64,000 nucleotides of DNA from Octopus vulgaris (taxonomy: Eukaryota). This document shows positions 1,156-62,434 of this stretch, piece after piece; position 1 is the stretch's first letter, and every line of letters starts with the position of its first letter. The stretch spans positions 24,366,001 through 24,430,000 of the forward strand of contig OX597823.1 in assembly GCA_951406725.2 (NCBI GenBank), written 5' to 3'. Position numbers and translations under genes: made by a program. The notes beneath the pieces are model-generated. The model saw nothing but the letters and a program-made list of their open reading frames with translations. It did no database searches and was not told where the DNA came from.

Positions 1156-1395
1156 TTGCTCAGATCCATTTTGTGAAAGTAAAAGGTGCAGCTCTGGATA
1201 TAGCAGGGAAATCATTGTGGAAAGAGAAAAAAGTAACACCAGAAGCCTGTGCAAATGAATGTCTGACTGATAAAAAATGTTTATCATTTGAAATAAAGAA
1301 AAAAAGTGGGAAATGTTACTTGTCAAAAGAAACTGCAGCTACCTCTAAGGAAATTAAATCAGACAACAGCAGAGATTACTACCAAAAAGTAAAAC
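1156..1395 (+). CDS. Exon A1: PAN/apple domain type A (AQIHFVKVKGAALD...CANECLTDKKCLSFEIKKKSGKCYLS...DYYQKVK)
   Basis: Acceptor ttctag|, donor |gtaata, 240 nt. 4-Cys PAN pattern CxxxC-x5-C-SF-x-C-YL and C-terminal DYY. Three paralogs of identical length. Confidence 0.9.
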
Positions 1396-1889
1396 GTAAT
1401 AATTCTTTGTGTTTTGTCATTGGAATTCTCTTTTCCTTTTTTTATTCATGAAATTTGTGATTCTATTTGTACTTCATTGTATATAGACAACTATTTCTGT
1501 AAAAGTATTGACAGGTTTACCTATGAGGACAGTTATAGAAATTTTGATGAAAAAGGTGTTATCATGAAAATATTGTTTGGGCATTTTCACACAAAATTGG
1601 TTCACATTGAACACTATTATGCATGTTTTCAGTTTTTTTCTGTGTAAGAAAGGAGACTCTTGTTCTTTTTCTTAAACCTGAGCAGCAGCAATGGCAGCAG
1701 CAGCGGCGGTGGTGAAGGAGGTGGTGGTGGTGGTGGTAGTAGTAAGAATAATTTCAAATTTTGGCAGAAGGCCAACAGTTTTAAGGCAACAGTGTTTATT
1801 TATACCACCGTCCACTGTTCTTGACTGGTATTATGTTGTATTTACACCAGAAGGACAAAAAGCAGTTTTCCCTGACAGAGTTTAAAACA

Positions 1890-2500
1890 TCTAGGGTCTT
1901 CCACTGTGTGCTTCAACCTTCCAGAGTTTAACAAACATCTTCAGCAGTATTAATTCTTGTGGAAGGATGTGAGGAGGCATGATATGACCTTCATTGCCAC
2001 TCCTAAAACTATTACTGCTGCTGAAAAATTAGTGACCATCAATTTACGGACATCAGTAAAATCTTTACTTAACTGTCATTTGTTGATGAGGTAGTCTGCA
2101 AAAGGGTTGTCATAAAATCAGTTTTTTCTATTCATCAGTTATTCCACTTTGCAAAACTAGTTTTAAAGCTTAAATATTCTATCACATGCACTGACTACCT
2201 AAATTACCTAATCAACCCACGTCTTAGCAAGAAGTATGCACACACTATCAACCCCATGACTGTTTCCTACCCAGAAGATTTTATACCTATGCTCTTTGAC
2301 TGTGAGGAACCTGGCAGAACCTCATCTCCACCTTACTTCTTGGATACAACACACATCTGCATGCCTCCTTTCAAGTTTCTCATCAATCTCACCAGGCCTA
2401 CCTTTCAGTGTGCTCACATGAAATGTGCCAACTCTAACGGTGTGGAAGGTGTAGGCAGGATCCACTTTCTGTAGAAGGGATGTCCAGGTGCTCTATTTGC
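1890..2500 (-). mobile_element. Degenerate RTE-clade LINE, N-terminal AP-endonuclease fragment
   Basis: Minus-strand translation RVGTFHVSTLKG..GEIDEKLERRHADVCCIQEVRWR and WVD.VI.VV..CDRI, with stops and frameshifts. Boundaries approximate. Confidence 0.7.
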
Positions 2501-3414
2501 TGTCAATACCCACCTAATGGAGGACTGGGTATGTTATGGTTGATGATGCACTGATGTGCACTGAGGCTACAGCATCTCCAGAAATTCCTCATTGCTATTT
2601 CTCAGATGTGTGTTTCCACAGATTACTTCTTTAATAGAACCTAGTCTATTCCAAAAGACTTTCTATCTGGGGCTCCATGGATAATTACCAGAAATTCCTG
2701 GCCTGACTGTGCTAGTAGGAGAACATTGGCTGTCCAGATAAATTCTACAGCCATGGAAGCACCATTAGTCAATTCTATTCATGCTGCATGTAAAACGATG
2801 AAACTACCCTGCATGCATTTTTCCTTTGCCCATGTAACAACTGACTTGTAGAGATAAGATTTGTATACCTGTTGTCATATGTAGGGCAGATCAAGCCATC
2901 AGTTATCAGCTATGTCCATTGTGAAGGTCATCCCACCACATACCTTTGCTCAGGAAAATCAGGCAGCCTTTATCTGTCTGGTGGTTTTGGCTAAGTAAAC
3001 TGTGTAGTGGACCAAATAAAATTTTAGCTGCCTTTTGCTTTGGCCAAGTTCTCCATTATTTCAAGTTTCACTTGAAAGGAAAACTGAACATGGAAAAGGA
3101 AATGTTACTTCCCAGCAAATTTTGAAAACTTGATGAGTGTGGCAGCTCTAAGCATGGACCTGTAGATTAAAGAAGGACCACTGAGAAAGGCACTTGCCTT
3201 AATGGTCAGGGTTACTGCAGTTTTATAAGGTTTCCACCAGTAACCCTCAGAGGCCTTTCTCCTTTTATAGAATCATTATTTGAATTTTTTTATTATCTGT
3301 TTTTGTGATTTTAATTTTTAGAAACTTTTTTGTGAAATCCCATATTGTATTATCCTATATTATTCTAAACTTTTGTTAAATTTTGGTGGTTAATGAAGAG
3401 ATATAATTATTATT

Positions 3415-4135
3415 ATTTAGGTTGCAAGTGGTAGAGTCATTAGCACACCTGACAAAATGTTTAGTAACATTTCCTCTGGATCTTTATGTTCTGAGTTCGA
3501 ATTTCACCAGTCAACTTTGCCATTCTTTGTTTTGTGGTCAATAAAATATGTACCAGCTAAGCCCTGTGGTCACTGAAATTGGCTTACCCACTCCCCATAA
3601 AATTTCAGGCTTTGTGTCTATAATACAAAGAAATATCATCATCATCATCACTACTGTTATTATTTATTTCTTTATTGCCCACAGGGGGCTAAACATAGAG
3701 GAGACAAACAAGGACAGACAAAGGGATTAAGTCAATCTTATCGAAGTCAGTGCATAACTGGTACTTATTTAATCAACTCCGAAAGGATGAAATGCAAGGT
3801 TGACCTCAGCAGAAATTAAACTCAGAATGTAATGGCAGGTGAAATACTGCTAAACATTTAGCCCGGCATGCTAACGATTCTGCCAGCTCGTCATCCTTAT
3901 TATTATTACAATTACTAAAGCAGTGAGCTAACAGAATCGTAAGCATGCCAGACAAAATGCTTAACAACATTTCATCTACCTTTGTGTTCTGAGTTGAAAT
4001 TCAACTGGTTAACTTTGCCTGTTGTCTTTTTGGGGTGAATAAAATAACTATTGGCTGGTCATTGGGTTCAGTGTAATTGATTAGCCATTTACCACAAAAG
4101 TTCAGGCCTTGTATTCATAGTAGAAAGAATTATTA
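3415..4135. mobile_element. Cluster of three tRNA-type SINE copies (+,-,+)
   Basis: Each matches the ttctgagttc(a/g)aat...aactttgcc core of the better-preserved copy at 57941, with (ATT)n tails. Confidence 0.75.
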
Positions 4136-4149
4136 TTACTATTACTGCT

Positions 4150-5130
4150 ACTAATATATTTGAATCTTGAGCATGTTCTGCTCCAGGCTTTGGCTGGAAT
4201 AAAACTTCAGTCTTCTTGATGCTGATAGGCAGTTCAAGTGCATGAGATGCCACAGCAAACCTGTCAGCCTTTTCCTGAATTCCTTCCAATGTGTCAGAAA
4301 TCAGAGCACAATCATCAGCAAACAGAAAGACTTGGTTTTTTTCTGTAATGTGAAACTTTGCCATTTTAGGTTTAATAGACCTCCTTCAATGCAAAACTAG
4401 AATTTTGCACCTTCATAGTAATCCCTGAAAGTATGTTAGAGCATCATTGAAAAAGAATGTGGTAAAAGCACTGGAGCTAAAACACGGCCCTGTCTGGTTC
4501 CTGTAACAACAGAAAATGAGTCTGAACATTGACTACCAGATATCACTGTCACCATCATTCCTTTATGCAGGAATACTATTGCACTTATTGTTTTATCAGG
4601 AAGACCAACTTTTCACAAAATTTTCAAGAGTGCCTCACAGTTCATTGTATCAAAAGCCTTGGCCAAATCGACAAAGACGATGTAAAGGGCAGTATTTTGT
4701 TCATATGCTTTCTCTTAAATTTGTTAGAGGTCAACTATACCTCTCCCAGCCCAAAACATACATTTAGATTCAGGGTATATGCTATTTATTACATGTTTAT
4801 TGATGCAGTTAAGGATCACCCTTACAAAAATTTTTCCAGTTAGGCACAAGCTTATTCCTCTGTGATTATCATATACACTCTTCTTTATCTTGTGTTTGTA
4901 CAAGTACATTATAGATGCATCTTTGAATTGTTAGGGAAAAGATTCAGTTTCTCAGATCAAACAGATCAATCTGAAAATTTCTTAGTAGTTGTCTGCCACC
5001 ACTCTTGTACACCTCTGTGGGAATACCATCTTGTCCAGGAGCTTTACCATTGGAAAGTTTTTTAATAGCAGTATTTATCTCTTCCTAGGAGGGATTTTCC
5101 ACAAGTTCCTCTGTTATGCAAGGGTTTTCA
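4150..5130 (-). mobile_element. Degenerate RTE/BovB-like LINE reverse transcriptase fragment
   Basis: Minus-strand ORF pieces DNHRGISL and LFADDCALI...KKTEVLFQP; internally deleted. Confidence 0.8.
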
Positions 5131-5149
5131 AAATTAAGATAAACTAAGT

Positions 5150-6342
5150 CTAAAATATACTCTCCTTCATTTTCTACAATGCTCTTCCATCTATCTAGTA
5201 GACTTTCAAGGCCCCTCTTACAAAATTCACTTACCCATGATAAAAAAATACTTCTCCAGTAATGTTCTGACCTTGTCTTCAGAATTCATATTTTTTTCCG
5301 TCCAAATGATTTTGAAGACTGCGGAATAAATGATTATCAGATGAGGTAATGTCCAACGAATATGGTGGGTAATTCATTGTTTCCCATTCAAACTGCTCCA
5401 GCCTTTGGAATGTCATCCTTGCTGTATAAGCATTTTCCTGGTGGAAGAACATCTTTCATCTTGAAACCAACGATAGTCATTTTCCTTCAAGCACTGACTT
5501 AAGCTGCTCATGGTAGATCTCCTTTGTTATCATTTCGTTTGGGTTTAAAATTTCAAAGTAGACTAAGCCTTTCATATCCCACCAAACAGATGACACCTTA
5601 CATGGGTGAAGACCTCCTTTAGCCTGGGATACTGGTGTTTTTCCTTTCCCTACCCATTGCCTTCAGCACTTGGATTTTTATAGAGAACCCATTTCTTGTC
5701 ACTAGTCACTATTCGGTCCAAAACAGTTTCATTCGTAAGACATGACAACAAAGAAGAGCACACATTCACTCTCTACATGCAGTTAAACTTAGAAAGTTTG
5801 TAAGAAACATATTGACCCAATTTGCTGACTTTTCCAATGGCATGTAGGTGTCGATGAATGGTTAAATGACCAAATCCAAGCATCTCTGCTAGTTCCTCAA
5901 CAGTTATGATGGGATTTTGTTCTACCAGGTTTTGCAGGACATCCTTGTTGAGCTCTACAGATCTTTCAGGATAAGGTTCATCTTCTAGGCTGTAGTTTCC
6001 AGCTTGGAATTTCTGGAACCACGGTAGACACTAGCTTACACTTATTGTCCAATCCCCATATACTGCATTAATATTTCTTGCACTTTCCATTGCATTATTG
6101 CCTTTATTGACCTCATAAAGCAAAATATGCTGAATATGCTCCTTTGTCACTTTCATTATAGCTTTGAAAAAATAACTGTTAAAATAGAACTGCACTCTTC
6201 AAAACTTGCACTAAAAACAAGTACAAGTTAAAATTAGTACCTGCTTTTATAGCAAATTGATGCAGGTAATTTATCCCATCCTCTTCCGACTTTTAGTTCA
6301 TGCAATTAAGAAAACTGCATTATTTATGGGATGACCCAATAT
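5150..6342 (-). mobile_element. Mariner-type (DD34D) transposon remnant
   Basis: Minus-strand remnants of T.D.KWVLY, WWDMKG and PYS.DI..SD.HLFRSLQNHL motifs. TIR-like end ttatgggatgacccaata near 6325-6342; the other TIR not seen. Confidence 0.75.
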
Positions 6343-6831: not shown

Positions 6832-7065
6832 CCTATGATGATCTTTTCACATTTAAAAAAACTTCTATACCAGAGAAGGATACATTAAAACGGCTGAAGA
6901 ACAAGAGCTTAAAGGACTGTTATAAAGCTTGTTATAAAAATTCAGAATGTCACTCTTTTGAGTATAATAAAAAAGCTAAGTTCTGTGATCAAAGTAATGC
7001 AACCCACTTGACTGATGACCTTCAACCCAATAAAAAGGGTTGGGATACTTACGTCTTTAACCCAG
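6832..7065 (+). CDS. Exon B1: PAN/apple domain type B (YDDLFTFKKTSIPEKDTLKRL...CYKACYKNSECHSFEYNKKAKFCDQS...WDTYVFNP)
   Basis: Polypyrimidine tract and ctag|, donor CAG|gtcagt, 234 nt, open in phase 1. Not in the ORF track in this frame; translated by hand. Confidence 0.9.
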
Positions 7066-8380: not shown

Positions 8381-8468
8381 CAGTTTTAACATTGTCATAA
8401 TCTCCTCATAGTCACTCTCCTCGTAAAATACTCACACCATTGATGTCGATTTCTGTTTTCAATTCCAG

Positions 8469-8639
8469 TTAATGACAAAATAAACTGTGGACCACCAAGA
8501 GACATTGTTGGTGCATCAAAGTCCTACAGTTCCACCACCTACAGAGGTGAAGTGACTTACACATGTCCACATGGAGAGAAACTAAAGTCAAAATGTGGAA
8601 AGGACTATAAATGGACTTCAGTAAATTCTACATGTGAAG
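8469..8639 (+). CDS. Exon C1: sushi/CCP domain (NDKINCGPPRDIVGASKSYSSTTYRGEVTYTCPHGEKLKSKCGKDYKWTSVNSTCE)
   Basis: ttccag| ... G|gtaatg, 171 nt. C-G-x-P, Y-x-C, C, W, C sushi pattern. Translated by hand. Confidence 0.88.
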
Positions 8640-10188: not shown

Positions 10189-10192
<4 letters not shown>

Positions 10193-10240: not shown

Positions 10241-10243
<3 letters not shown>

Positions 10244-12459: not shown

Positions 12460-12630
12460 CTTATAAAGACATTGACTGTGGAAATCCAAAAGACATTGCT
12501 GGTGCAGCAAACTCCTACGAAGCCACCACCTATAAATCTGAAGTGACCTATACTTGTCCAGAGGGAGAAAAAATAAAGTCAATATGTGAAAAGGACAACA
12601 AATGGACTCCAATTGTGGAAACCTGTGACG
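12460..12630 (+). CDS. Exon C2: sushi/CCP domain (YKDIDCGNPKDIAGAANSYEATTYKSEVTYTCPEGEKIKSICEKDNKWTPIVETCD)
   Basis: tttcag| ... G|gtaaca, 171 nt, 4 Cys + Trp. Confidence 0.88.
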
Positions 12631-15891: not shown

Positions 15892-16131
15892 ATCCTCAGA
15901 TTCATTTTGTGAAAATAAAAGGTGCTGCTCTGGATGTACCAGGGAAGATATTGTGGAAGAAGAAAAATGTAACAACAAAAGCCTGTGCAGAAAAATGTTT
16001 GTCAGACAAAAAATGTCTATCATTTGAAATAAATAAAGAAATGGGAAAGTGTTTCTTATCAAAGCAAGCTGCAAGTTCCTCCAAGAAAATTAAGAAAGTC
16101 AAGAACAAAGATTACTACCAACGAGTGAAAC
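15892..16131 (+). CDS. Exon A2: PAN/apple domain type A, very Lys-rich
   Basis: ctctag| ... C|gtaact, 240 nt, within ORF 15843..16145. Confidence 0.9.
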
Positions 16132-25533: not shown

Positions 25534-25770
25534 CTGATGAAGGGCCTATTATACTGAAAAAAGTTAGCATACCAATCCAGGCTACTTTAGGACGGCTTAA
25601 GGATAAGACCTTAATGAAGTGTAAAAAGGCTTGTCAACAATATGTAGGATGTAACTCTTATCAGTACAATGCTGATGATAAGTTGTGTGATCTGAGTAAT
25701 GTGACTCAGTTGAGTGATAATGTACTTAAACCCAATGATGGAAAGTGGGATATATACATAGCTAACCCAG
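25534..25770 (+). CDS. Exon B'2: PAN/apple domain type B' (DEGPIILKKVSIP...WDIYIANP)
   Basis: tttcag| ... CAG|gtcagt, 237 nt, within ORF 25485..25778. Confidence 0.9.
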
Positions 25771-31324: not shown

Positions 31325-31495
31325 TTATTACAAAAGTTGATTGTGGACTGCCAAAAGATGTTGTTGGTGCAAAGAAGTCCTACACTAAAACCACCTATAA
31401 ATCTGAAGTGACCTACACCTGTCCAGGAAGACAAAAGTTGAAGTCAAGATGTAAAGATGACAATAAATGGACTCCAGTTGCATCCAGTTGCAAAG
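31325..31495 (+). CDS. Exon C3: sushi/CCP domain (ITKVDCGLPKDVVGAKKSYTKTTYKSEVTYTCPGRQKLKSRCKDDNKWTPVASSCK)
   Basis: ttccag| ... AAG|gtaatt, 171 nt. Confidence 0.88.
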
Positions 31496-32091: not shown

Positions 32092-32331
32092 TTTCTAAAA
32101 TCCATTTTGTGAAAGTAAAAGGTGCAGTTCTTGATATACCTGGAAAAATTTTGGAGAGTAATAAAAGTCTAACAGCAGATGTTTGCGCAGAAAGATGTCT
32201 GTCTAACAAAAATTGTTTATCCTTTGAAATAACTGAAGAAACTGGAAAATGTTACTTATCAAAGGAAAGTGCAACTTCCTCCAAGAAAATAAAAGGAGCC
32301 AAAAGCAGAGATTACTACCAACGAATAAATT
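32092..32331 (+). CDS. Exon A3: PAN/apple domain type A (SKIHFVKVKGAVLD...DYYQRIN)
   Basis: ttccag| ... T|gtaatt, 240 nt, within ORF 32034..32441. Confidence 0.9.
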
Positions 32332-34409: not shown

Positions 34410-37400
34410 CATCATCATCATCATCATCATCGTTTAACGTCCGCTTTCCATGCTAGCATGGGTTGGACGGTTCAACTGGGGTCTGGGGAGCCCGAAGGCT
34501 GCACCAGGCCAGTCAGATCTGGCAGTGTTTCTACAGCTGGATGCCCTTCCTAACGCCAACCACTCCGAGAGTGTAGTGGGTGATTTTATGTGCTACCGAC
34601 ACAGGTGCCAGACGAAGCTGGTGAACGGCCACGCTCGGATGGTGTTTTTTTATGTGCCACCGACACAGGTGCCAGACGAGGCTGGCGAACGGCCACGCTT
34701 GGATGGTGTTTTTTTTTGTTTTTTTTTATGTGCCACCGACACAGGTGCCAGACGAGGCTGGCGAACGACCACGATCGGATGGTGTTTGTTACGTGCCCAC
34801 AGCACGGAGGCCAGTCGATGCGGTACTGGCTACGGCCACGTTCGGATGGTTGTCTTATGTGCCACAAAGATACAAATTCCATTGATGTTCATCTATTTTG
34901 ATTTGGTTTGATTTTGGTTTGATTTTCACTTGCCTCAACAGGTCTTCACAAGTGTCACAAGAAGGAAGGTATGCACAGGTGGACTGACTATGTCCCAGGT
35001 AGGGGCCACTGGTTATGGCCTCACTAGTTTTGCCGGGTCTTCTCACGCACAGCATACTTCCATAGGTCTCAGTCTCTAGTCATTTCCTTGGTGAGACCTA
35101 AAGTTCGAAGGTCATGTTTCACCACCTCATCTCAGGTTTTCCTGGGTCTACCTCTTCCACAGGTTCCCTCAACTGCTAGGGTGTAGCACTTTTGCACACA
35201 ACTATCTTCAGCCATTCTCATCACATGACCATACCAGCGCAGCCGTCTCTCTTGCACACCACAACTGATGCTTCTTAGGTTCAACTTTTCTCTCAAGGTA
35301 CTTACACTCTGTCGATTATGAACACTGACATTACACTGGCTTCATTTCTTGTGAGCTTACGCATATCCTCAGCAGTCACGGCCCATGTTTCACTACCATG
35401 TAGCATGGCTGTATGTACACATGCATCATACAGTCTGCCTTTTACTCTGAGCGAGAGGCCTTTTGTCACCAGTAGGGGTAAGAGCTCTCTAAACTTTGCC
35501 CAGGCTATTCTTACTCTAGCCGTTACACTTTCAGCACACCCACCCCTGCTACTGACTTGGTCACCTAGGTAGCGGAAGCTATCAACTACTTCTAGTTTGT
35601 CTCCCTGGAACGTGGTAGAAGTTGGTCTCTGCACATTTCCAGTGTTTATTGCTCCTGAGCATCTGCCACAGACAAAAACTATTTTCCTAGTTAGCCTTCC
35701 TTTGACATTGCTGCACCTCTTATGTGTCCATAGCTTACACTTGGTGCACCTTATAGAGTTTCTACCTACACCTTTTTTACAGATCGAGCAGGGCCATCTA
35801 CCTGAAGTCGTTTGTGATTGGTCCACCTTCCTACTTATTAGGACTTTGGTTTTAGCTAGGTTGATTCTAAGACCCTTCGATTCTAATCCTTGTTTCCACA
35901 CCTGAAACTTCTCCTCCAGTTCTGATAGTGACTCAGCAATTAGAGCAAGGTCATCAGCATAGAGGAGCTCCCAGGGGCATCCTGTCTTGAATTCCTCCGT
36001 TATTGTCTGAAGGACTATGATAAATAGGAGGGGACTGAGGACTGAACCTTGGTGGACCCCAACCTCTACCCGGAATTCTTCACTGTACTCGTTGCCAACC
36101 CTCACCTTACTAGCAGCGTCTCTGTACATGGCTCGCACAGCTCTCACTAACCATTCATCTATCCCTAGTTTCCTCATTGACCACCAGATAAGAGATCGGG
36201 GGACCCTGTCAAAGGCTTTCTCCATGTCAACAAAAGCCAGGTACAGGGGCTTATCTTTGGCTAGGTATTTCTCCTGCAGCTGTCTTACCAGGAATATAGC
36301 ATCAGTAGTACTTTTCCCTGGCATGAACCCAAACTGCATCTCATCTAAGCTAACTCTCTCTCTAATTAATTGGGCTATAACCCTCTCCGTAACCTTCATT
36401 ACCTGATCCAGCAGCTTGATGCCCCTGTAGTTATTTGTATCTAGGGCATCACCTTTACCTTTGTAGCAGTTGACTATTATGCTGCTACACCAGTCATTGG
36501 GTATGACTCCTTCGTGTATCACCTGGTTAACTATATGGGTGACTATGCTATAGCCGACACTACCAGATATTTTGAGCATCTCTGCAGTAATTCCTGATGG
36601 GCCTGGGGCTTTCCCTGTTTTCATGCTTGTAATTGCCTTAACTACTAAGGAACTGTTAACTCGGATTGCTGGTCCCTCTGTTGGGTCGACATTTGGCAGA
36701 CTCTCTTTATCCCATTCATTTTCCTCATTCAGCAACCTTTCATAGTGGCGTCTCCAAGCCTCTCTCTTTGCATCCTCATTTAGCGCAAGTGAACCATCAT
36801 CCTTGCGAACACATTTCTCTCCTACCACGTCACGATTCTCTCTCACACACTGTCTTGCAACACAAAATACCTCAAGTCTTTCATCCTCATGGCGCAGGAC
36901 ATTGGCAAACTTTTTCTTATCTGCTTCCCCTCTGGCTAGATAGACCTGTCTCCTAGCTTCTCTTCTAGCAGTCTGATACACTTCCCTGCTACCACCGTTC
37001 TTCCAGGCCTTCCAAGCCTGTTTCTTTTGTCTAATAGCCCTGTCAACAATATTGTTCCACCACCACTTTATTTTGGGTCTTAAGGGGACTTTGCACCAGC
37101 CACAGATCTGGTCAGTGGCTTTCAGCAGGTTGTCCCTCAGAAGCGTCCAGTTGTCTTCTACCCCATGCGTAGCTATACCCCCTTCCATTTCGTCAAAGGC
37201 ATCAAGTAACATGTCTCTAAATCTCTGTCCATTCGCAGGGTCTTTAAGCTTCCAGACCCTTCTTCTCCATGTTGGTCGTCTTCTAGTCGCCCTCTTAGTC
37301 CTGATCCTAAAGTCACTAACTACCAGTCTATGTTGTGGGGTGCATTCTTCGCCTGGGAAGGTTTTGGCATTTATAAGCAGCCATCTTTCCCTTTTTCTGG

Positions 37401-37811
37401 CAAGGATGTAGTCGATTTGGCTAGTATGCCGGCCCAATCGGTAGGTGACCAGGTGGCTTGTCGGTTTCCTGAAGTTAGTGTTGCAAACCTTAAGACTATT
37501 TGCATCGCAGAACTCCAGCAGCCTAGTTCCCTCCTCGTTGCGGGAACCATAACCATAGCCTCCATGTACGCCATGGAAGCCACCAGCATGTCGTCCAACA
37601 TGCCCATTGAAATCACCAGCCACAAAGAGAAGGTCCCTGTCGTTCATCAATGAGGTGGTCTGCAGTAGGGTGTCATAGAAACTGTCTTTCTGTCCATCGG
37701 GTAGCCCTGGCTGAGGGGCATAGGCCGATATAATGGTTGCTAATCTATGATGAAGCACTATTCTAATCTTAAGTATTCTGTCACTTACTCTGATTACCTC
37801 AATTACTTTAT
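34410..37811 (-). mobile_element. Young, 5'-truncated RTE-clade LINE (partial APE, RT, PHD-type finger, 3' UTR with tandem repeats, (GAT)n tail)
   Basis: About 830 uninterrupted codons: AGDFNGHVG, QIDYIL, NYRGIKLL, QFGF, DMEKAFDRV, GVHQGSVLSPLLF, LLYADDL, FRYLG. Frameshift near C-terminus (~35340). Flanks rejoin to the sequence seen upstream of exon B1. Confidence 0.96.
34588..34866. repeat. About four ~60-70 bp tandem units in the RTE 3' UTR
   Basis: Repeated tatgtgccaccgacacaggtgccagacgaggctggcgaacggccacgctcggatggtgttt. Confidence 0.9.
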
Positions 37812-37848
37812 GAAATGTAATTCTTGTTTTCTTTCTTTTTTTATCTAG

Positions 37849-38082
37849 CTGATAAAGATATTTTAAAATTTGAAAAAACTTCCATACCAAGAGAAGATAC
37901 ATTTAAACGGCTGGAAAATGTGACCGTAAAGGAGTGTGACCATGCTTGTCATCAAACTCCAGGATGTAACTCTTATGAGTATAATGAGAAAGCTAAGTTC
38001 TGTGATCAAAGTGATGCGACTCACCTGACTCATGACCTTCAACCAGATCAAAAGGATTGGGATACTTATGTCATTAACCCAG
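37849..38082 (+). CDS. Exon B3: PAN/apple domain type B (DKDILKFEKTSIP...WDTYVINP)
   Basis: atctag| ... CAG|gtcagt, 234 nt, within ORF 37824..38090. Closest to B1. Confidence 0.9.
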
Positions 38083-43237: not shown

Positions 43238-43408
43238 CTTATTCAAGTATTAATTGTGGGCCTCCCAAAGATATTGATGGTACATCAAAGTCCTACAAAA
43301 CTACTGCCTATAAATCTGAAGTACTCTATACTTGCTCAGATGGAGTACAGCTAAAGTCAATATGTGAAAAAGACAACAAATGGACTCCAGTAGCATCTTC
43401 TTGTAATG
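43238..43408 (+). CDS. Exon C4: sushi/CCP domain (YSSINCGPPKDIDGTSKSYKTTAYKSEVLYTCSDGVQLKSICEKDNKWTPVASSCN)
   Basis: tttcag| ... G|gtaaca, 171 nt. Confidence 0.88.
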
Positions 43409-46405
43409 GTAACATAAATCCATTCCTTCATATTGCCTCTCTTTAAGTAATTTTGTTAAATTTTTCTGTTAAATGCCTTTGTGAAAAGAATACTGGCTGG
43501 CACCATTACTATTTCCATGGTGTTTGCAGCTGGTGGGAAGAAGAGAGGAAGGAATCCTCAGACCAGAGACTTCTTCAGATGCTTGCAATGTAGTGGATTC
43601 CAATAATATAACCAAAAAGCCTGATAATGCTATTAAACTTGGTGATGGATTAAGTTTGATGACCAAGAAATTGAAGGCTAGAAACTTGTCACCAGATGTA
43701 TTCTAAAAAATTTCCATCCAGTAATTTTCATCCACAAGGATTCATTGTGAAGCAGATTTTTAACCACACTCACAAAACTCTACCCAATACAACATTCTTG
43801 CTAAGTAAACTTATCAACTCATTAGCTATACTTCACCTCATCTTGATACACTTTTTAAAAATTTCTTACTTGATCTTTCTCACCCATATTTTATATCATC
43901 ATCCAAAACTCAGTACAATTTAAGGCTCTACAATCCTCTGAAACGAACTTGTGCTTCTTTTGTTCCCTCTCATTTCTCCACCCTTGATTATAACAATATT
44001 ACTAATATTAAGCCAACAATTTTTGATGGACAGGTATTGTCATCACAATCAACCTTACAATTTGACTGGTCCTTTATGACATTGGCACCCTCAAGGATGA
44101 AAGGCAAAGTTAACTTTCGTTTCATTTGAACTGATGCCCAAAAAACCATACTGTAAAGCATATCGTTCAACTCTCTAATTAGTGCCCATGTATACATTGA
44201 AAATAAGATGAGGATGATGATACAACCCCCTTAAATCTAGCAGAATCTATATCTAGGACCAATTGAAGAAACCTGTCATTGAAGATCATCCTGAAATCCA
44301 AGGATTAGTGTCCTCTCCAATTATTGTACACTGACCAAGTTTTATGCACTCAGGTCTCCATCCACTCTTGCCATTTTTTGCTAATTTCACCTTCATTTCA
44401 ATAATTTCACTTGAAGTCAATTCCTACCATGTCATCCTTACCTTCTTTACAAGTGAAACTTAAAAAATATAGACGTGGATGTTTACCAATGTGGAAAGTC
44501 AATGTCATATGACCATTCAACTTCTCTCACCAAACACCCTCTTTTTGTATAGCTACTAGACAGAGGAAAACTGCCTTCTCTGATGGTTACAGGAGGTCAT
44601 GGGACAATCTTCATGATGGACTTGACTAACAGCCAAATCTATCCCCCATACAACAACGATAGATTTATATAACTCCATAAATCAGCAATACTTGGACGTT
44701 GAATGAGTGCATGCAAAATGGTTTTGTTTTATTGCCTGAATCTCAAACAGGCCTTTCTGATGGTACTTATATGACTGGAGTCCTTTGGTAGCTCTGCCAA
44801 GCCAAGAACTTCAGAAAGTTGTCCATAGTATTCTCTGACAAAATGTCCTCTGAAACACAACTTTGCAGTTTGTTGTTCATCAATACTCAGAACAGCCCTA
44901 AGAATGTCAGCACTCTATCCCTCCACTAAATCTCAATGGATTGCTCGAGTGGAACATCCACCAGTCCCATTGCCCAGATCAGATTTGATCCTGCATACTA
45001 CATCTGAAATTCTGAGGATTGCATTAAATAATATGAAATACTCTTTTTAAAGATGGTTGGGAATGATTGAGGGAGATATTATTTATAGTTCTAACATGTT
45101 ACATGTCCACATAGGGTGTTCCACAGTGACTGGTAAATTTTGGATTTATTATTGCAAGCTAAAATATTTCACACAGTTTATCTTCTGGTGTAATTTATTG
45201 CCTTATTCAACACCACCACCTGGCCTTTGGGTGGTCTTGGTGATGGTGATGGACACTATTTGAGCCAATGTTAATATATCTGTTACAGTAGGAAACATTC
45301 ATATTAACCCAGAGTTGCTCAGGCTGGACAAGAACCACTTTAATCTCACATTTAGGAGGGAAGGTGACCTGAGAAATTCATGGCTAAGTGGTTTCTGCCA
45401 GGGATAGCTTATTAAAACATAAATATCTTCTAATTGTAATCAATTATGTATTCTTTTGTTCATGACTAAACATAATTAGAGAAAGAGATTGTGATATTCA
45501 TGGCTTTCTAAATGTCTATGTAACATGAACTGATCATTGACTCACACCAGTCAATCCAAATTTATACTAAAAGAACAACTATGGAAAAATACTCAGAATT
45601 ACCTTCTCTATGGAAAACAAATAGAAAATTGGCTACTTTACTTTAAATCGTAAAATAAAAATACTGTGATCAACTATAATTTTACCATAATTGATCATTA
45701 AAATGGATAGTCTAATAAATAAATTCAGAAGCGACAACCTTATAAATATGAATTGCATTTTTCTTCCTATCACTGAAAGTTTAAGTTTGGTGAATTCAAA
45801 TTTCTTTGCTTACTATATTAAGTTGTGAGCATTCACATTTACTACATATTTATATTATTTACTTGATGAAGATGAAAGTCAGATCATTTTAGTTTTCCAA
45901 GGCAAAACACTATAAAATCAGTAGAGTGACTAACCATATTTAGTTATATACTTTTACATTCTTGGCTCAAATCCCACCAAGATGTACTTCACTTTTTATA
46001 CTTCTGAGGTTGATTAAACAAGCACTATTCAAGAACAGAGGTTGATAAATTTTCGTGTATCCTCACTGTAGGATCTGTGGCCTTGTGTTTAAGTTAGGAA
46101 CCACTATCATTAATATTGGTAACTTCAACAATGATTATGATTATTCTTGTTAATAAGGGTAATGTATTGACAGAATCATTCAAACATCAGATAAAATATG
46201 TTGTGGTATTTGTTCTGGCAATTATATTTCTTAGTTTAAATCTCGTTGATGTGAACATTGCTCATTCTAAGTTAATAAAATAAGCTATCAGTTAAGTGTA
46301 GAGGCTAATTTAATTGACCAGCTCTTACCTAAAAATTTGGCCTACTTTTAATGTTAGAAATTGTTGTTGTTAGTTTACTAAACCTAAAGTTTGCTTTAAC
46401 TTTAG

Positions 46406-46645
46406 ATCCTCAGCTCCATTTTGTGAAAATAAAAGATGCAGCTCTGGATGTACCTGGGAAAACATTGTTGGATAAGGAAGATGTAACAGCAGATGAATGT
46501 GCAAAAAGATGTCTGTCTGATGAAAGTTGTTTATCATTTGAAATAACCAAAGGAAATGGAAAATGTTACTTATCAGAGAAAACCGCTGCTACCTCCAAGA
46601 AATTAAAGGGAAACAAAGACAGAGATTACTACCAACGATTAAAGC
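46406..46645 (+). CDS. Exon A4: PAN/apple domain type A (PQLHFVKIKDAALD...DYYQRLK)
   Basis: ctttag| ... C|gtaatt, 240 nt, within ORF 46351..46830. Confidence 0.9.
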
Positions 46646-50993: not shown

Positions 50994-53711
50994 TCTTTAT
51001 ATATATAAAACTGAGAATGTGTGTCTGTCTGTCTGTCTATCTGTGTGTTTCCCTAAAACTTGAGAACTACACAACCAATTTCATTCAAATTTTACACATG
51101 CCTTACTTAGGGTCCATGTAGTTTCATGGGCAAAAAAATGTTCAACTTCTTGCCTAGAGCGAGCCCATAGCAATATATCTTCTCCACTATTTCAGTATTA
51201 TGTGTTAAAAGTGAAACAAAAACATTTCTCTATTTTATGTCAGATACTTTCACTTTAACAATAAAAATAATAATAACAATTGAATTATATGTAGTAAGTA
51301 ATAATTAAAATCAAACTAAAGTATAATATAATCGTAACATTAAAAAAAAGTAAAAATAGCAATTGGTATAAAATTGCATCAATGACTTGAACTTGAATAA
51401 GTGGTTTCACATGAATGGGAATAAATTAAAAATAAAATTAGCGTGCAGAAATGGAATAGTCCAGATGGATAATAAAAAATTAAATTAAAGAAAAGACTAT
51501 TGTCTATAAAGTATACAATGTAGAGAAAAAAGAAGATTGAATGGACGTGTTTTTTTTGCGCTCTGTGAAATTCGGTTAAAAAAGAAAAAAGAACAAAAAG
51601 TGAATGGTTGTTGTTGTGAAATTTTGAACATCGTTGATGCGGTTTCGCGTTTCACTGGTTCTGCGCGTTGCACTTATTCGGTTCGGGAGGCCGTTTTTTG
51701 GTCTGAGGCGACTATGAGCCGCCTCTACCAAACGGATGAGATGGAAGGGAGAAATTTCTCTGAAAATTCGTCGACATCTGAGGAGGAGTTGGCGGTGGAA
51801 AAAATGGAAAGCACCTACGCAGGTATAACGAAGAAGTCAACAGAAAAAGAGATAGACCTGGCTAAGTTGACGGGCTTCCAGGAATTCATGAAGGAGGACG
51901 AGAACGGAGAGGTCGAGCTGCTGCCTCCAGCAGGGCGTGGAGACTGGTTCCATCGTAGAACCATTAAATATAAAGTATTTATGAATGGAGGTAGAAAAAT
52001 GGAAGTGATTAACATGGAAGCAATTGAAGAGGCTCTCAAACAGACAGGAGAAGAAATTGTGTACATGACAAAAGGATTAGAATATGGAACCATAACGGTA
52101 CAATTTAAAAGTGAGAAAGCAGCCAGGAATATAGCAGCCAAGGTGGTGAGTACAGAAAAGATTTACTTGTTCCCCTCGTATTTGAATAGAAGGACCACCA
52201 GAATTAGGGTGGTGGGAATACCTCCACACCTAGAGGGCGAATTAATAACGGCTGCGGTTATCAAAGGAAATGAAGATAAAGTGGACATCCTCCATGCCAT
52301 TATGAAATATGAAGGCGTGAGAGGTGCCACACTAGAAATGAAGATACAGACGGAGGCGGAAGTTATAGAAAAGCTTACGGACAGTATAAAAACTGGGAAT
52401 ATTATTATGAGAGTGTGGGTGGAGGGTAGGGCGCCCAGGTGCTACAAGTGTGGCCAGAGGGGTCACATAAGAGCCTACTGCCCTCCCCCACCAAAGGAAA
52501 AAGAAAAGGAAATCGTCGCGGAAGCCCCAAAAGAGGAAGAAACCAAAGAGAACCAAACGGAAAAAGAAACGACAGAAGAAGAGGAGATGCAACAAGAGTG
52601 GGAAGAAGGAAGAAAAAAGAGAAAAAGAAAGAAAAAGAAAAACTGTGCAAAGCCCCAACCCACCCCAACACCACCCGCACCCTCTGAATCCCACCCTTCC
52701 CCTGCAGACAGTGAACCCACCCACTCCCCTCCAACAAGAAAACAAAAGAAAAATAATAATACAGACAGACAAGAGTTTGAAAACAAACCCAGGCCGAACA
52801 TTTATATTGTGACTGAACAGAAAGAAGTTAAAAGGGTAATGGAGGAGTATGAATGGTATGAAATGGATGGGACCAGATATGCAGTGCTGGAAAAGAAGAA
52901 TATAGATGAGTTTGTGTTGAGGTGTGAGAGGGAGAATTGGGAGGTGAAGGATACAAGAATGAGCGATGAATTCGTGGAAAGTATGGAGGACAGTTTCGGA
53001 GTAAGAATGGATATGGAGGGTCTTCATATTGGGAATGAACATTCAGGTGACAGTGAAAACAAAAGGACAGGTAAGTGATGCTGGCGGAGGGGGCCATTAG
53101 CATCGCTTTCATATTATCATTTTCATTTTAATATTCATTTGCTCATAAATTTAATCATATTGTTCTATGTCCCCCATGTTTTGTTATGTCTGCCATTCTT
53201 CGTAGCCCCTGGTGGGTAATAAAGAAATTACATGGAAGAAAGCACCTTCGAAAAGTGTCTTGCTGCAACTATGAAAGGTATCTAATCAGAGGCGATAAAT
53301 TCGCCACAATAGAAGCAAGGTTCGAGTCAACGGAGCGTGCAAGGGAGTACTCAACTTGAACTTGCAAAGTGGAAATATTTTACTTTTACCTTTATATCTG
53401 GGACGTCCTACGTCCCGGAAAAAAATTTTAAATGCCCCCCAGCCCCCACCCAGAAGTTGAGGTCGGCTGGATTGTAGCCACACTTCTATACAGATCCAAT
53501 TGATCGAAATTGCAAGACACGGACCTACAATTCCAGTCTGTTATATATTTTGAGTATTGTTATCACTAGCGATATCAAGATATAACTTTGTATTTTGTAT
53601 TTTATGTGTAGATGTATATATATAGATGTACATGTAATATGTACACATATATATACACATATATACATGCACTAGCACTATGACCCGGCAACGATGGGTC
53701 TTTAATGCTAG
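50994..53711 (+). mobile_element. Complete non-autonomous Helitron (5' TC ... hairpin ... CTAG 3', inserted at A|T) containing an ORF1-like gene
   Basis: 5' A|TCtttatatatataaaactgagaatg; 3' GACCCggcaacgatGGGTC-tttaatg-CTAG|T. Removing it gives ttcaa|tatttaatatatg, matching tacaatatttaacatatg upstream of paralogous exon B'2. Confidence 0.85.
51714..53078 (+). CDS. Intact 454-aa non-LTR retrotransposon ORF1/gag-like protein (RRM-like region, CCHC zinc knuckle, E/K-rich and Pro-rich tail); L1/Tx1-like by inference
   Basis: First ATG at 51714. TRIRVVGIPP and VWVEGRAPR-CYKCGQRGHIRAYC (CX2CX4HX4C). CpG-rich leader 51600-51713, AATAAA at 53218. No ORF2 follows. Confidence 0.82.
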   Translation: MSRLYQTDEMEGRNFSENSSTSEEELAVEKMESTYAGITKKSTEKEIDLAKLTGFQEFMKEDENGEVELLPPAGRGDWFHRRTIKYKVFMNGGRKMEVINMEAIEEALKQTGEEIVYMTKGLEYGTITVQFKSEKAARNIAAKVVSTEKIYLFPSYLNRRTTRIRVVGIPPHLEGELITAAVIKGNEDKVDILHAIMKYEGVRGATLEMKIQTEAEVIEKLTDSIKTGNIIMRVWVEGRAPRCYKCGQRGHIRAYCPPPPKEKEKEIVAEAPKEEETKENQTEKETTEEEEMQQEWEEGRKKRKRKKKKNCAKPQPTPTPPAPSESHPSPADSEPTHSPPTRKQKKNNNTDRQEFENKPRPNIYIVTEQKEVKRVMEEYEWYEMDGTRYAVLEKKNIDEFVLRCERENWEVKDTRMSDEFVESMEDSFGVRMDMEGLHIGNEHSGDSENKRTGK

Positions 53712-53809: not shown

Positions 53810-54043
53810 TTGATGACAAGCCTTTCATGATGAAAAAAGTTAGCATACCAAAGAAGGCTACAATAAAAGAGCTTCAGGGTATGAAATTAAAGGAGTGTGA
53901 CGAAGCTTGCAGTCAATATGCAAGATGTAACTCTTATCAGTACAATAAGAAAGAGAAGATATGTGATCTGAGTCATGCGACTGAGTTGAACAATGAACTT
54001 ATGCCTAATGATGGAAGCTGGGATCTATACATTATTAATCCAG
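53810..54043 (+). CDS. Exon B'4: PAN/apple domain type B' (DDKPFMMKKVSIP...WDLYIINP)
   Basis: ttccag| ... CAG|gtcagt, 234 nt, overlaps ORF 53827..54051. Closest to B'2. Confidence 0.9.
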
Positions 54044-57930: not shown

Positions 57931-57940
57931 TGCACTGCAC

Positions 57941-58342
57941 TAAGGTGGTGAGCTGGCAGAAACGTTAGCATGCCGGGTGAAATGCTTAGCAGTATTTCGT
58001 CTGCCGCTACGTTCTGAGTTCAAATTCCGCCGAGGTCGACTTTGCCTTTCATCCTTTCAGGGTCGATAAATTAAGTACCAGTTACGCACTGGGGTCGATG
58101 TAATCGACTTAATCCGTTTGCCTGTCCTTGTTTGTCCCCTCTGTGTTTAGCTCCTTGTGGGTAGTAAAGAAATAGGTATTTCATCTGCCGCTACATTCTG
58201 AGTTCGAATTCTGCCGAGGTTGACTTTGCCTTTCATCCTTTCAGGGTTGATTAAATAAGTACCAGTAATGCATTGGGCTTTATATAATCAACTTAATCCA
58301 TTTGTCTGCCCTTGTTTGTTCCCTCTGTGTGTAGCTCCTTGT
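57941..58342 (+). mobile_element. Well-preserved tRNA-type SINE with tandem duplication of its 3' part
   Basis: A-box-like gagctggcagaaacgttagc and B-box-like gagttcaaattcc; 57992-58175 repeated at 58176-58342. Decayed copies at ~270, 910, 6345, 9240, 15625, 31880, 46160, 56128. Confidence 0.85.
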
Positions 58343-58630
58343 GGGCCCTAAACAAATAAGAATCCTCTGCACTGTCCTCTGATTGACACACAAAACATTC
58401 TGAAATGTTCATATTGAAGCTTCCAGTGTGAATGCCAAGCAGTACAGCATGTCATTTCCAAATTTCTGGCAGAGTGAATTGCATCATGGTGCTGTTTTTC
58501 TCAGATGATGCCCAACTGACCCTAGTATACTGTATAGTTAATGAAGTCAAAAGCAAACAATGCACATGCACAAAATTAAGAAATATAGAATGGCAACAAT
58601 TTACACATTGTACCCTGTATATATATATAT

Positions 58631-59026
58631 ATAGGGAGAGTTCACAAAAGAAAACAAAAGACGAAGACAGGTGGTGTACAAAACAAACAGGTGTATTAGT
58701 ATAATGCTCAGGAATTGAAAAAGTCTTTTACATTTCAAACCAACTCTCTTCTACAGAAAGGGACACAGAAAACAACAAGGAGAGAAAAAAATGTGTGTAG
58801 TGGCTACCAATCTATCAGTCACCATGATAGATTGGTAGCCACTACACACATTTTTTTCTCTCCTTGTTTCTCTCCTTGTTTTTTTTCTGTGTACCTTTCC
58901 GTAGAAGGGCATAGGTTCGAAATGTAGAAGACTTTTTCAATTCCTGAACGTTATACTAATACATCTGTTTGTTTCCTACACCACCTGTCTTCGTCTTTTG
59001 TTTTTTTCATGAACTCTCCCCATATA
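58631..59026. repeat. Fold-back inverted repeat, ~190-bp arms, 9-nt loop (58817-58825)
   Basis: ...aaaaatgtgtgtagtggctaccaatctatc-agtcaccat-gatagattggtagccactacacacattttt...; arms pair out to gggagagttca/tgaactctccc. Confidence 0.92.
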
Positions 59027-59181
59027 TCACACGCTCACATGGTCGCACCAGTTGATCCTGTCATTTCTTATCACACACGAACTTCTCCACTGGACTTTCT
59101 ACCTATCTACCCTTTATGGATTCTCTTTTGGACATTTACCCTCCAGCTGCACCTCTCCTACATATGGGTCACTGTGGATTC

Positions 59182-59251
<70 letters not shown>

Positions 59252-60021
59252 TTAATAATAATAGAAAATTTGACAGTGCAAATATTCTAGTGTATATATA
59301 TATATATTATATTATATTATATTATATTAAAACAAGAGATTGGACGATTTTTGGTACTATTTATTCACCATTGCATGTGTGGCATTTGCTCTATAGGAGT
59401 CTCATCATCATTTTCATTTAACATTTGTTGTCCATGCTGGCATGGTTTAGACAGTTTGATCAGGGTGTGTACTTTGAGGGGCTGCACCAGATTCCAGTCT
59501 TATTTGGCACGATTTCTACAGCTGGATACCCTTCTTAATGCCAACCACTCCAAGAGTGTAATGTGTGCTTTTACGTGCCATTTGCATGACAACAGCATCT
59601 GCCACGACTATGATTTCACCCAACTTGATGGATCTTTCTCCTCAAACACAACATATTGCCAAAGGTCTTGGTAATTTGTCATCTCTTCTGTGAGGCCCAG
59701 TGCTTGAAAGCTGCTTTTTATGTGCCACTCATATGGTTGCTAGTTCCATGACACCAGCATTGGCCACATTGCCTCCATGAGGCCAAATACTCAAAAGGTG
59801 CTTTTTACATGCCACTGGTACGACTGCCAGTTGTGTGACACCGGTAACAACCACAACTATATAGATACAATTGCTACTGAGATGAACACATTCATCATTG
59901 TAGCAATAGTATCTATGTAAAAGGTTTGTATCTAAGTGTATGATGAAGCATGAATGTATGTATATTTGTATGTTATATTCATATATGTATGAAGATATAT
60001 ATATATATATATATATATATA

Positions 60022-60190
60022 TCAAATAATATTAGGGAGTATAACTCCAAACTTACAGGGAAAAATTCAATTTAGTATTAAATCAAATTTCCCAGTATAA
60101 ATATATAAAATATAAATTAGAGATAAAACCACTATTATGCAAGTCACACAGTGATAGAGATAAACCAATACATAAATAACCAATATATAT
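60022..60190 (-). repeat. Short terminal fragment of the same family as the 19665 element, adjacent to (TA)n
   Basis: atattaggga...ccaaa(c/t)ttacagggaaaaa..caatttag.attaaatc...attagaga(t/c)aaaaccactatt shared with 19680-19790. Confidence 0.75.
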
Positions 60191-60344
60191 ATAAATATAT
60201 AAATAATGTTTTTTTTTTAAATATATAACTTATAACTAGATCTCATAAACATTATTTATATATTTATATATATATATATTGGTTATTTATGTATTGGTTT
60301 ATGTCTGTCACTGTTTGACTTGCATAATAGTGGTTTTATCTCTA

Positions 60345-60398
<54 letters not shown>

Positions 60399-62266
60399 TT
60401 GCTCATATGTATATGTGGCTATGTATATGCAGGAGTATATGTGCATATAACAATTTCAGTCATTTAAGATGACATCTTCATACTGGAAAAAAATGGAAAG
60501 AAAAGTTGAAATAAATAGAAACTTCCATAATATCATTTGTGAAAGTTCCTATATTTCCTTTATAAAAATCACATGGGGCTGTACTTCCCATCCTACTGAT
60601 TGGTGCTTGTTGGTAGTGATGGCCATGGTTAATAAAAGTGCTTGCAGGCAAGTGGTGGTAGAAGGGATAGCAGAAAGTGTAGTAATGTTAGCAATTGTTG
60701 ACTCTCTTCATTGATGGGAATGGTAGCAGGTGTGTTTGTTGTTGGCAGGAGAAGGAAAATAATAGTAGTAGTAGTAGCAGGAACACTTAGGTTTCCTTAT
60801 GGCTTATAATGGTGTTTAATCTGGCTAGTAGTTGTGGTATTGGCTCATAGCATTTTTCAGTCTATGGCCTAGCAGTCATTGTTGTTGTGGTACCAGTAAG
60901 GGTTGCAGTATTGTTGTGATGGTTGTTGTCCTCCTTTCTCCACCATAGAAATTACAATGTGGTCAATATTTTATAATGAAGAACATTTCTTTGTTAATGT
61001 TTTAACATATACTTGTATTATCACCAAATTTATTGAGAGGGAAAATTAAAAAGCTAGGTTTTTTGTAACCTGTACACACGTCCAAATGTTCACTGGGTCC
61101 TGTTTTTCTATGTTCCCCTATTTTAATTTGTGCTCTGTGCTGGTTTGTTCATTGACATAGAGTATTTATTATTTGTCCAATATGATCCTTACCACATCCT
61201 AAGCATGTTATTATGTGTGTGTCTTTGTGTTTTGTCTTTGTCCCCACCTCTGCTGTGAAACTGGAGTTGGTTGGATTATGTCTCTGCGACTTAGCAGTTT
61301 GGCATGACAGAGCATTAGAATAAGTATCTCACAAATATAATTACTGAGTCCAATTCATTTCACTAAAACCCCTTCAAGGTAGTGCCCCAGTATGACCACA
61401 TTCCAATGACTGAAACAAGTAATGGATAAAAACTTACAAAAACACTCCCTTCCACATTGTCTCTCACTTTTTCCTCTCCCTACTCTCCTTCCTTTTTGCC
61501 AGGTTCTCTCTCTGTTACTTTTTCACTTTGCTTCTCTCTATATATGGTGAAGATGCTGACGACCGCTTTGTTCAAAGCCTCCCTTGACCTCAAGTGGCCT
61601 GAACTCTTTACATGAACACCACCCTGTACTTAACTCCATGTCCCCCTACATGGCCTTGCTATTTGCTTTTGAGCCAAATTAACTAACTAACTAACATATC
61701 TCTCTCTAGCTCCAAGATTTACAACTTATTTTATTATTTTATATTTATATATTTTACATTTTTTTCCTATTTAATGTTGTCCATTTTAGTTATTCCTTTC
61801 TCTTTTCATTGATTACAGGCCTCTCTTATTTTTTACCCCTCTCCCTTTCTGTCTGTTTCTTTCAGGCATTTGCTCTCAATCTACTTCTCTCAGCATACTT
61901 CTAACAACTGTACAACTTCACACATTTGATCTCCGTAATATAATGCAATAAAATTTTCCCTTAATGATCCGTTTGTGGTTTGCCATCCAGTTGTACTTGG
62001 AACATCCAATTCATCCAATTTAAGCAACCACAATAGTTGAGTGTACAAGGGGAACAAATAATATGAAATTGTGTTTATCATAATTTCTCCTACATTTGCT
62101 CTGTATATCATAACCAGTTTACTATACTGCATGCATGTATATTGTGCAAATGATTCATTTTATTTTAGTTAATATCTTATATTCTAAATATGTAATTATC
62201 TCCTCATTCTTCTCTTCTTCCTAACATATACTCACAATTGACACTAGTTTCTTTTATCAATTACAG

Positions 62267-62434
62267 TTGTCACAAAAGTTGATTGTGGAGCACCAAAAGT
62301 TGTTGTTGGTGCATCTAAATCCTACAATACTACTAACTACAAATCTGAAGTGATCTATACTTGTCAAAAAGGAGAAATATTAAAGGCAACATGTAAAGAG
62401 AACAGGAAATGGTTTCCAGTAGTGTCTTGTAAAG
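62267..62434 (+). CDS. Exon C5: sushi/CCP domain (VTKVDCGAPKVVVGASKSYNTTNYKSEVIYTCQKGEILKATCKENRKWFPVVSCK)
   Basis: ttacag| ... AAG|gtaatg, 168 nt (one codon shorter, frame preserved). Closest to C3. Confidence 0.88.

Follow-up and report, generated by a model that had tools for sequence, protein, structure and literature searches.

A 1.64-Mb array of PAN and sushi exons in Octopus vulgaris, predicted to encode one giant secreted protein

Domains of the PAN fold occur in one to a handful of copies in the N domains of plasminogen and hepatocyte growth factor (HGF), in factor XI, in prekallikrein, and in the apple arrays of apicomplexan micronemes, whereas 210 of them, with four cysteines each, alternate with sushi domains in the locus of Octopus vulgaris that we describe here. 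The stretch analyzed, hereafter the window, comprises 64,000 nucleotides (nt) of the forward strand of contig OX597823.1 (C10:24,366,001-24,430,000, corresponding to window positions 1 to 64000) in a genome of 2.8 Gb, and covers about 4% of a predicted gene that extends over 1.64 Mb (C10:23,362,495-25,003,050). We consider it very probable that this array is one transcription unit, and give even chances to the fuller proposition: that octopuses make from its 349 exons one secreted polypeptide of ~24,000 residues (2.7 MDa before glycans, ~1 micrometre in length), which chain arose by the 105-fold copying of one cassette of a salivary protein and whose 343 different modules are stable in order between species and diversifying at their surfaces.

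Titin is an intracellular chain of immunoglobulin (Ig) and FN3 domains. Its likeness to the octopus gene lies in the hundreds of small modules, arranged in super-repeats, that a single gene contributes to a protein of up to 35,000 amino acids (aa) (PMC12680273); the octopus array likewise has a period, of four units, but its product would be rich in disulphides, bears a predicted signal peptide, and has each domain encoded by one symmetric exon. DIG-1 of C. elegans, with 13,084 aa, is also a giant secreted matrix protein of many modules, although in the accessible passage on it (PMC8544517) those modules are of the Ig, FN3, VWA, and EGF types with a poorly conserved center, the length is about half that of the octopus giant, and neither PAN nor GON is mentioned. 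[quoted passage not shown] ADAMTS9, ADAMTS20, and GON-1 share with the giant that C-terminal GON (PF08685), but their M12B protease and thrombospondin domains were absent from Pfam scans of 11 array pieces and from the giant's predicted frame, the introns having been scanned over 62% of the span for PAN and sushi profiles alone.

The predicted order of parts in the giant—signal, PAN, PAN, sushi, GON—is also that of the GON-Abd-1 cluster (O. bimaculoides LOC106874924, O. sinensis LOC115215708) and of the cuttlefish GON-Sep-2; but GON-Abd-1 has 465 aa and one unit, as opposed to the 105 units of the giant. The latter is an extreme variant of this known, though uncharacterized, coleoid PAN-sushi-GON family, and would function in the manner of other giant secreted proteins of modular build. 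The name GON-Abd-1 reportedly goes back to a survey of venom glands by Ruder et al. 2013.

The window exons and the array to which they belong

The initial annotation had read, between positions 1156 and 62434, thirteen exons of one domain each, all in symmetric phase 1-1 and differing in length by whole codons. All thirteen were confirmed, in the order A-B-C-C-A-B'-C-A-B-C-A-B'-C (A and B denoting the two PAN types, C the sushi domain), each with an AG acceptor, a GT donor, phase 1, and a stop-free frame. The A exons measure 240 nt, the B exons 234 nt (one 237), and the C exons 171 nt (one 168); in the predicted gene they are exons 200-212 of 349:

1156..1395, + strand, PAN type A exon A61 (exon 200 of 349), 240 nt, phase 1-1
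6832..7065, + strand, PAN type B exon B61, 234 nt
8469..8639, + strand, sushi exon C78, 171 nt
12460..12630, + strand, sushi exon C79, 171 nt
15892..16131, + strand, PAN type A exon A62, 240 nt
25534..25770, + strand, PAN type B exon B62, 237 nt
31325..31495, + strand, sushi exon C80, 171 nt, joined to A63 in contigs
32092..32331, + strand, PAN type A exon A63, 240 nt
37849..38082, + strand, PAN type B exon B63, 234 nt
43238..43408, + strand, sushi exon C81, 171 nt
46406..46645, + strand, PAN type A exon A64, 240 nt
53810..54043, + strand, PAN type B exon B64, 234 nt
62267..62434, + strand, sushi exon C82 (exon 212 of 349), 168 nt

Searches of the whole genome with the proteins of single exons matched 107 PAN-A, 105 PAN-B, and 134 sushi exons on C10, all of them stop-free and on the + strand; weak matches off that contig (3 A, 2 B) were excluded from the map. 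All the mapped exons were fetched, 62% of the span was read, and both strands were scanned with profiles, which scan added one short divergent PAN-B exon, exposed one PAN-A match as a decayed fragment, and detected no further intact PAN or sushi module in that 62%. The final tally of 105 PAN-A, 105 PAN-B, and 133 sushi exons amounts to 343 modules, with 330 of these lying outside the window. Every one of the 343 is bordered by AG and GT (two exon borders having been placed by hand), has a length divisible by three, and is free of stops; four cysteines are present in 340 and five in the other three; and no two exons are identical in protein. The types are interleaved as ABC or ABCC along the entire array, the gaps between modules measuring 4.2 kb in the median and 19.6 kb at the largest, and the order along C10 is a lone A-B-C-GON set, an NDUFV1-like gene, an unbroken run of modules, and a second GON. 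Thus, the span annotated at the outset was correct, yet it held 13 of the 349 exons and missed the extent of the array, the leader exons, and the C-terminal GON.

The identification of the folds as PAN and sushi was supported as well. PAN_1 scored above its cut-off of 21.4 bits in all eight A and B exons of the window (31.7-45.5 bits), and Sushi was the best match in all five C exons (18.4-25.3 bits), exceeding its cut-off of 20.7 bits in two. A sushi or CCP domain is recognized by four cysteines, the last of them preceded by a tryptophan, within ~56-60 aa, and those residues are conserved at a level of at least 90% across the 133 exons. In the model of a one-unit O. bimaculoides protein (pLDDT 88), the PAN domain resembled the HGF N-domain (Z 12.4, root-mean-square deviation [rmsd] 2.1, 82 residues aligned) and the sushi domain the CCP modules (Z 5.3-6.9, rmsd ~2, 52-57 aligned), with kallikrein (Z 8.4), microneme lectins (Z 8.0-8.3), and a leech salivary anti-platelet protein (Z 8.9) being further matches to the PAN fold. 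By profile, cysteine number, and fold, the PAN modules belong to the plasminogen/HGF N type of the PAN superfamily. The apple domain of factor XI and prekallikrein contains three disulphides (six cysteines), which type the cysteine counts given above rule out. The label SVEP1/polydom, carried by the database proteins P0009, P0019, and P0020, was likewise rejected, since VWA, EGF, and pentraxin domains would be expected under that name, but P0009 consists of PAN and sushi alone, and P0019 and P0020 map along their length onto PAN and sushi exons.

Certain further features of the array were observed. The decayed PAN-A copy, at C10:24,195,905, is partial, lacks both acceptor and donor, and is the sole broken module seen. 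The added PAN-B exon (C10:24,093,506; 201 nt) is divergent in its N-terminal half, which peculiarity is shared with P0007 of O. bimaculoides; located near unit 42, it could possibly mark a hinge or a special site. The splice signals are type-specific, with the donor GTCAGT occurring in 82 of 106 PAN-B exons and GTAATT in most PAN-A exons. A block of ~110 nt recurs at 57 places on C10 with 68-82% identity, in most cases at a distance of 220-1,070 nt upstream of a PAN-A exon, the upstream flank of 82 of the 106 A exons having been read for that tally; in the window the block lies at 493-554 and 45927-46015, and across its copies it contains indels and does not keep an ATG. This block is probably inherited intron and possibly a splicing element. 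A hydrophobic frame within it, at C10 23,364,367-424 and thus 330 nt upstream of the first PAN-A, was considered as the signal exon and rejected as part of the recurrent block, which has 21 matches in the genome and 57 locally, bears indels with no kept ATG, and lies in introns of the kind that the two listed exon joints skip. On another contig, a weak PAN-A match followed 1 kb on by a weak PAN-B match (C13:19,980,513-19,981,690) would mark another, putative two-PAN gene. The window introns carry long interspersed nuclear elements (LINEs) and other repeats, among them a reverse-transcriptase LINE on the - strand (35305-37902) with an open frame of 866 codons, related copies of which are abundant in the sequencing runs that we guess to be RNA; and a zinc-knuckle open frame of 522 codons on the + strand (51510-53075), similar to a retrotransposon ORF1, within the A64-B64 intron.

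Ends of the predicted gene and its one-unit paralogue

A query with the GON domain retrieved two exon sets in the whole genome, at 23.28 Mb and 24.99-25.00 Mb on C10, while the leader exons were found by comparing the DNA upstream of the small gene of the first set with that upstream of the giant. The end exons of the giant are the following:

C10 23,362,495-549, + strand, leader exon, 55 nt, with an ATG and a hydrophobic stretch, ending in phase 1
C10 23,363,457-486, + strand, second leader exon, 30 nt, ending in phase 1
C10 24,990,060-331 and 24,994,551-727, + strand, GON exons 1 and 2, retrieved by the GON-domain query
C10 24,997,435-576 and 25,002,974-25,003,050, + strand, GON exons 3 and 4, the fourth holding the stop

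Genome-wide, two places each were matched by the leader region and by the last exon together with the 3' untranslated region, and the 30-nt exon has two matches within the sequence read. The PF08685 profile scored 114.8 bits at the extreme C-terminus of the protein P0004, to which the GON exons 1-3 of the genome are 81-93% identical. The GON model of P0004 (pLDDT 89.6) had its best structural match at Z 3.5 and no Foldseek match at E 0.001, being thus without a clear solved relative; and, although the first 47 positions of the GON profile, and these alone, resemble collagen C-propeptides (E 1e-6) and the N-terminal part is also fibrinogen-like, a likeness over 47 positions is insufficient for claiming the formation of trimers.

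When spliced, the 349 exons give 73,059 nt with one stop, in the terminal position, and a predicted protein of 24,352 aa with a mass of 2.75 MDa, an isoelectric point of 8.9, 1,390 cysteines, 272 N-glycosylation sequons, and 14% lysine, in which frame the PAN-A modules have a mean net charge of +7.4. Among stretches of 19 residues the most hydrophobic is at the N-terminus (mean 1.49), and the remainder of the 24,352-aa predicted frame showed no membrane-like segment; so that, of the secreted or cell-surface multivalent protein supposed initially, the secreted form is likely and the cell-surface form is not favored.

At 70 kb upstream of the giant (C10:23,269,851-23,294,202) lies an intact paralogue with a single signal-PAN-PAN-sushi-GON unit, which matches GON-Abd-1 of Abdopus aculeatus (UniRef R4G2C1) exon by exon with 81-95% identity and is, by this measure, likely to be its orthologue. 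For this small gene, the start predicted over the two leader exons agrees with the N-terminal sequence of GON-Abd-1, which correspondence supports the leader model. The first, last, and GON exons of the giant, for their part, are 40-72% identical to GON-Abd-1, and the giant is therefore a paralogue and not an orthologue. Between the two genes, on the same strand (~C10 23,313,000-23,331,000), is located the NDUFV1-like gene, which we take from its motifs to encode the complex I flavoprotein.

In the posterior salivary gland proteome of O. vulgaris, the GON-Abd-1 protein group was represented by 18 peptides with 43.1% coverage (PMC7693380 Table S1), and salivary presence is known for this small group alone; accessions and motifs of the giant were not found in the searched rows of two proteome supplements, which result is no evidence of absence. 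The initial annotation had not recognized the repeating architecture from any characterized protein; the architecture is not without precedent, since a one-unit version, though uncharacterized, has a UniRef entry and a place in that salivary proteome.

Splicing, module divergence, and conservation among octopuses

To the window segment 31,200-46,800 we compared contigs from four runs, X1-X4, which we guess to be RNA and whose tissue is not stated; the joints considered are the 15 listed, with 28 more outside that list. Positions 31495 and 32092 (C80 to A63) are joined across a 596-nt GT..AG intron in contigs from X1 and X2, and positions 43406-8 and 46404-6 (C81 to A64) in contigs from X1 and X3, within two bases of the predicted sites; in addition, a contig from X2 is identical to B63 over window positions 37954-38079. 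There was no exon joint from X4 among those listed. A64 was partly present in the four runs (8-46% of words), none of which is recorded as RNA. These observations support that neighboring exons are spliced together.

The modules have a median identity of 45-58%, with a four-unit period manifested as an identity peak at lag 4 (0.66 versus 0.58 in A, and 0.57 versus 0.43-0.45 in B), while the sushi exons peak at lag 5. The ratio of nonsynonymous to synonymous substitution (dN/dS) between nearest paralogues was 0.49-0.67 by counting. In a simulation of neutral decay over the 343 exons, 5% substitution placed a stop in 41%, and a stop, a lost cysteine, or a lost splice site in 69%; and neutral divergence of 2-15% would disable 39-97% of the exons, whereas none of the 343 was found disabled, from which contrast we conclude that a high dN/dS is not a sign of decay here. 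A home-made grid model of sites, which is uncalibrated and sensitive to gene conversion and to the alignment of exon ends, indicated a constrained core of 17, 7, and 13 sites, cysteines included, along with a nonsynonymous rate above the synonymous at 20 of 79, 15 of 77, and 6 of 56 sites.

The giant is annotated piecewise in O. bimaculoides, O. sinensis, and O. vulgaris, in pieces that start or end inside modules or enter introns and whose break points differ among the species. Proteins labeled as O. vulgaris (P0020) contain segments to which the window exons are 100% identical, and the pieces from this species, in skipping many PAN-A exons and ending in introns, fit truncated predictions. 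The O. bimaculoides loci LOC128248837-841 fall in numerical order on the array at approximately units 14-18, 20-23, 30-38, 39-42, and 43-61, with the best match being ambiguous within recently duplicated stretches, and LOC106869402, the only piece with a GON, corresponds to the last units. In LOC128248841 (4,083 aa), 56 of 57 exons are in order at a mean identity of 82% for A and B and of 87% for C. The remaining one, A47, shares 95% identity with A52 within the present genome, a likeness that gene conversion is likely to have produced. Open, colinear orthologues exist in O. bimaculoides and in O. sinensis, and the colinear exon order in the former indicates that the array and its order existed before these species separated. 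A representative search, considered down to its best 150 hits with ten proteins looked up by name, gave no multi-unit array outside Octopus; short PAN/sushi-GON proteins exist in cuttlefish and a four-PAN protein in Argonauta. A description of this locus was not found in the open literature, while subscription papers and bioRxiv supplements outside the search may bear on its novelty; and the main text of cephalopod venom and gland papers and of a review contained neither GON nor PAN as a whole word.

Weighing the readings and the possible function

We incline, by a slight degree, to the reading that the window lies within a single gene for a predicted secreted giant, a multivalent strand that would cross-link a sugar-rich secretion or matrix; that the protein is made at full or nearly full length we hold to be an even proposition or marginally better. 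The history would have begun with the duplication of a one-unit ancestor (signal-PAN-PAN-sushi-GON), of which one copy stayed small, whereas in the other the PAN-PAN-sushi cassette would have been copied ~105 times, often as four-unit blocks, the symmetric exon phase keeping the frame throughout that copying. A transcript of ~73 kb would be produced, probably alongside shorter skipped forms; the chain would then enter the ER, where two disulphides would form within every module and the GON domain at the end would likely aid ER exit or assembly. PAN and sushi domains are ~3 nm long each, on which basis the product would be a bead chain of ~1 micrometre carrying 343 domains and the 272 sequons. 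HGF-type PAN domains bind heparin, and the PAN-A modules would bind sulphated or acidic glycans. Going by the small paralogue alone, the likeliest source would be glandular, for instance the salivary gland. Judging from the cationic PAN-A modules, the heparin and sugar binding of the fold, the want of any membrane anchor, and the sister gene with its salivary product, we infer by analogy that the likeliest single function would be that of a strand cross-linking glycans in the secretion of a gland or in a matrix.

A number of points weigh against this reading. The glandular source and the glycan binding are proposed by analogy; 62% of the span was read, with 167 of 342 introns covered whole, which leaves space for an unrelated internal first or last exon; the current annotation splits the locus into pieces of at most ~4,100 aa; the ATG of the giant does not align with that of the small paralogue, an additional upstream exon being possible; and the putative signal peptide is only moderately hydrophobic. 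With respect to splicing, the RNA status of the four runs is guessed, X1-X3 come from one study, and the joints lack a DNA-run control; A63>B63 and B63>C81 are absent among the 15 joints listed; no long read or peptide covers more than two exons; and the C81>A64 joint bears five variants, all five of which are found in the sushi exons at C10 24,602,505 and 24,541,179, so that it represents the splicing of another array unit. Moreover, the dN/dS among paralogues was 0.71-0.79 (GY) or ~0.95, 0.97, and 0.77 (MGK), and the exon DNA identity of nearest pairs (0.82-0.86) barely exceeds that of the flanking introns (0.78-0.79), which two results weigh against strong constraint on most residues. The initial annotation had held that a dN/dS near 1, or a lack of junction-spanning reads, would argue against a functional gene: the former situation is partly realized, yet leaves function unrefuted, since the frame, the splice sites, and the cysteines have all been preserved; as for the latter, the contigs guessed to be RNA do join neighboring exons at the predicted sites.

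The array might, though this appears unlikely to us, be one gene that serves as a library of cassettes, with unit-skipping transcripts giving rise to many shorter, variable PAN-sushi-GON proteins for the recognition of microbes or prey and the full chain being rare or absent. The symmetry of every module exon, by which just 53 of 58,653 possible skip junctions introduce a stop, would permit such an arrangement, and the diversity of the modules along with the sites of excess replacement agree with it, although the uncalibrated site model may be inflated by gene conversion of the A47/A52 kind. Dscam arrays, however, consist of clusters of same-type alternative exons from which one per cluster is chosen, whereas the octopus types are interleaved, both of the listed exon joints connect neighbors, and the order of units is preserved between species. 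That several tandem genes are contained in the array, having first and last exons unrelated to both the leader and the GON sets, is improbable: even if the public annotations split the locus, part of the span is unread, and no read spans units, the annotated pieces break in the middle of modules or in introns and do so differently in each species, the inter-module gaps do not surpass 19.6 kb, and no second leader, GON, or terminal exon was found inside the array.

We assign an equally low probability to a polyprotein that would be cleaved after secretion into small PAN-PAN-sushi units directed at prey or microbes, as a diversified salivary cocktail. The 14% lysine would provide many protease sites, the surface sites evolve rapidly, the leech salivary anti-platelet protein shares the PAN fold, and the proteome of the posterior salivary gland includes the group of the one-unit paralogue (PMC7693380); but the modules abut directly with no linker exon and with no junction residue conserved at 90%, neither accession nor motif of the giant turned up in the searched proteome rows, and an activity of the small paralogue was not found in the literature examined. 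Finally, a neutral or decaying expansion, or an artefact of assembly, is very improbable and largely refuted already. A PAN-exon dN/dS near 1 in one model, intron flanks nearly as alike as the exons, and the one decayed fragment would fit such an expansion, but none of the 343 exons is disabled where the simulation expected many, spliced contigs exist, exon pairs of identical protein are lacking, and the orthologues in the other two octopuses are open and colinear.

If the full frame is used, the single secreted strand that we favor would be a protein of titin scale on the secretory route and would rank among the largest of animal proteins. MUC16 has ~14,500-22,000 aa, and larger intracellular enzymes, such as PKZILLA, exist; the giant would be, to our knowledge, the longest secreted animal protein if that full frame is made, one that has stayed hidden because annotation pipelines cut the locus into pieces. 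It would then constitute a test case for the size limit of a disulphide-bonded chain in ER folding and export and for the role, poorly understood, of GON at the end of such a cargo, while the intact one-unit sister gene nearby provides an unusually clean record of amplification by symmetric exons. For the octopus itself, the giant would be a candidate for a polymer of mucus, saliva, egg coat, or matrix.

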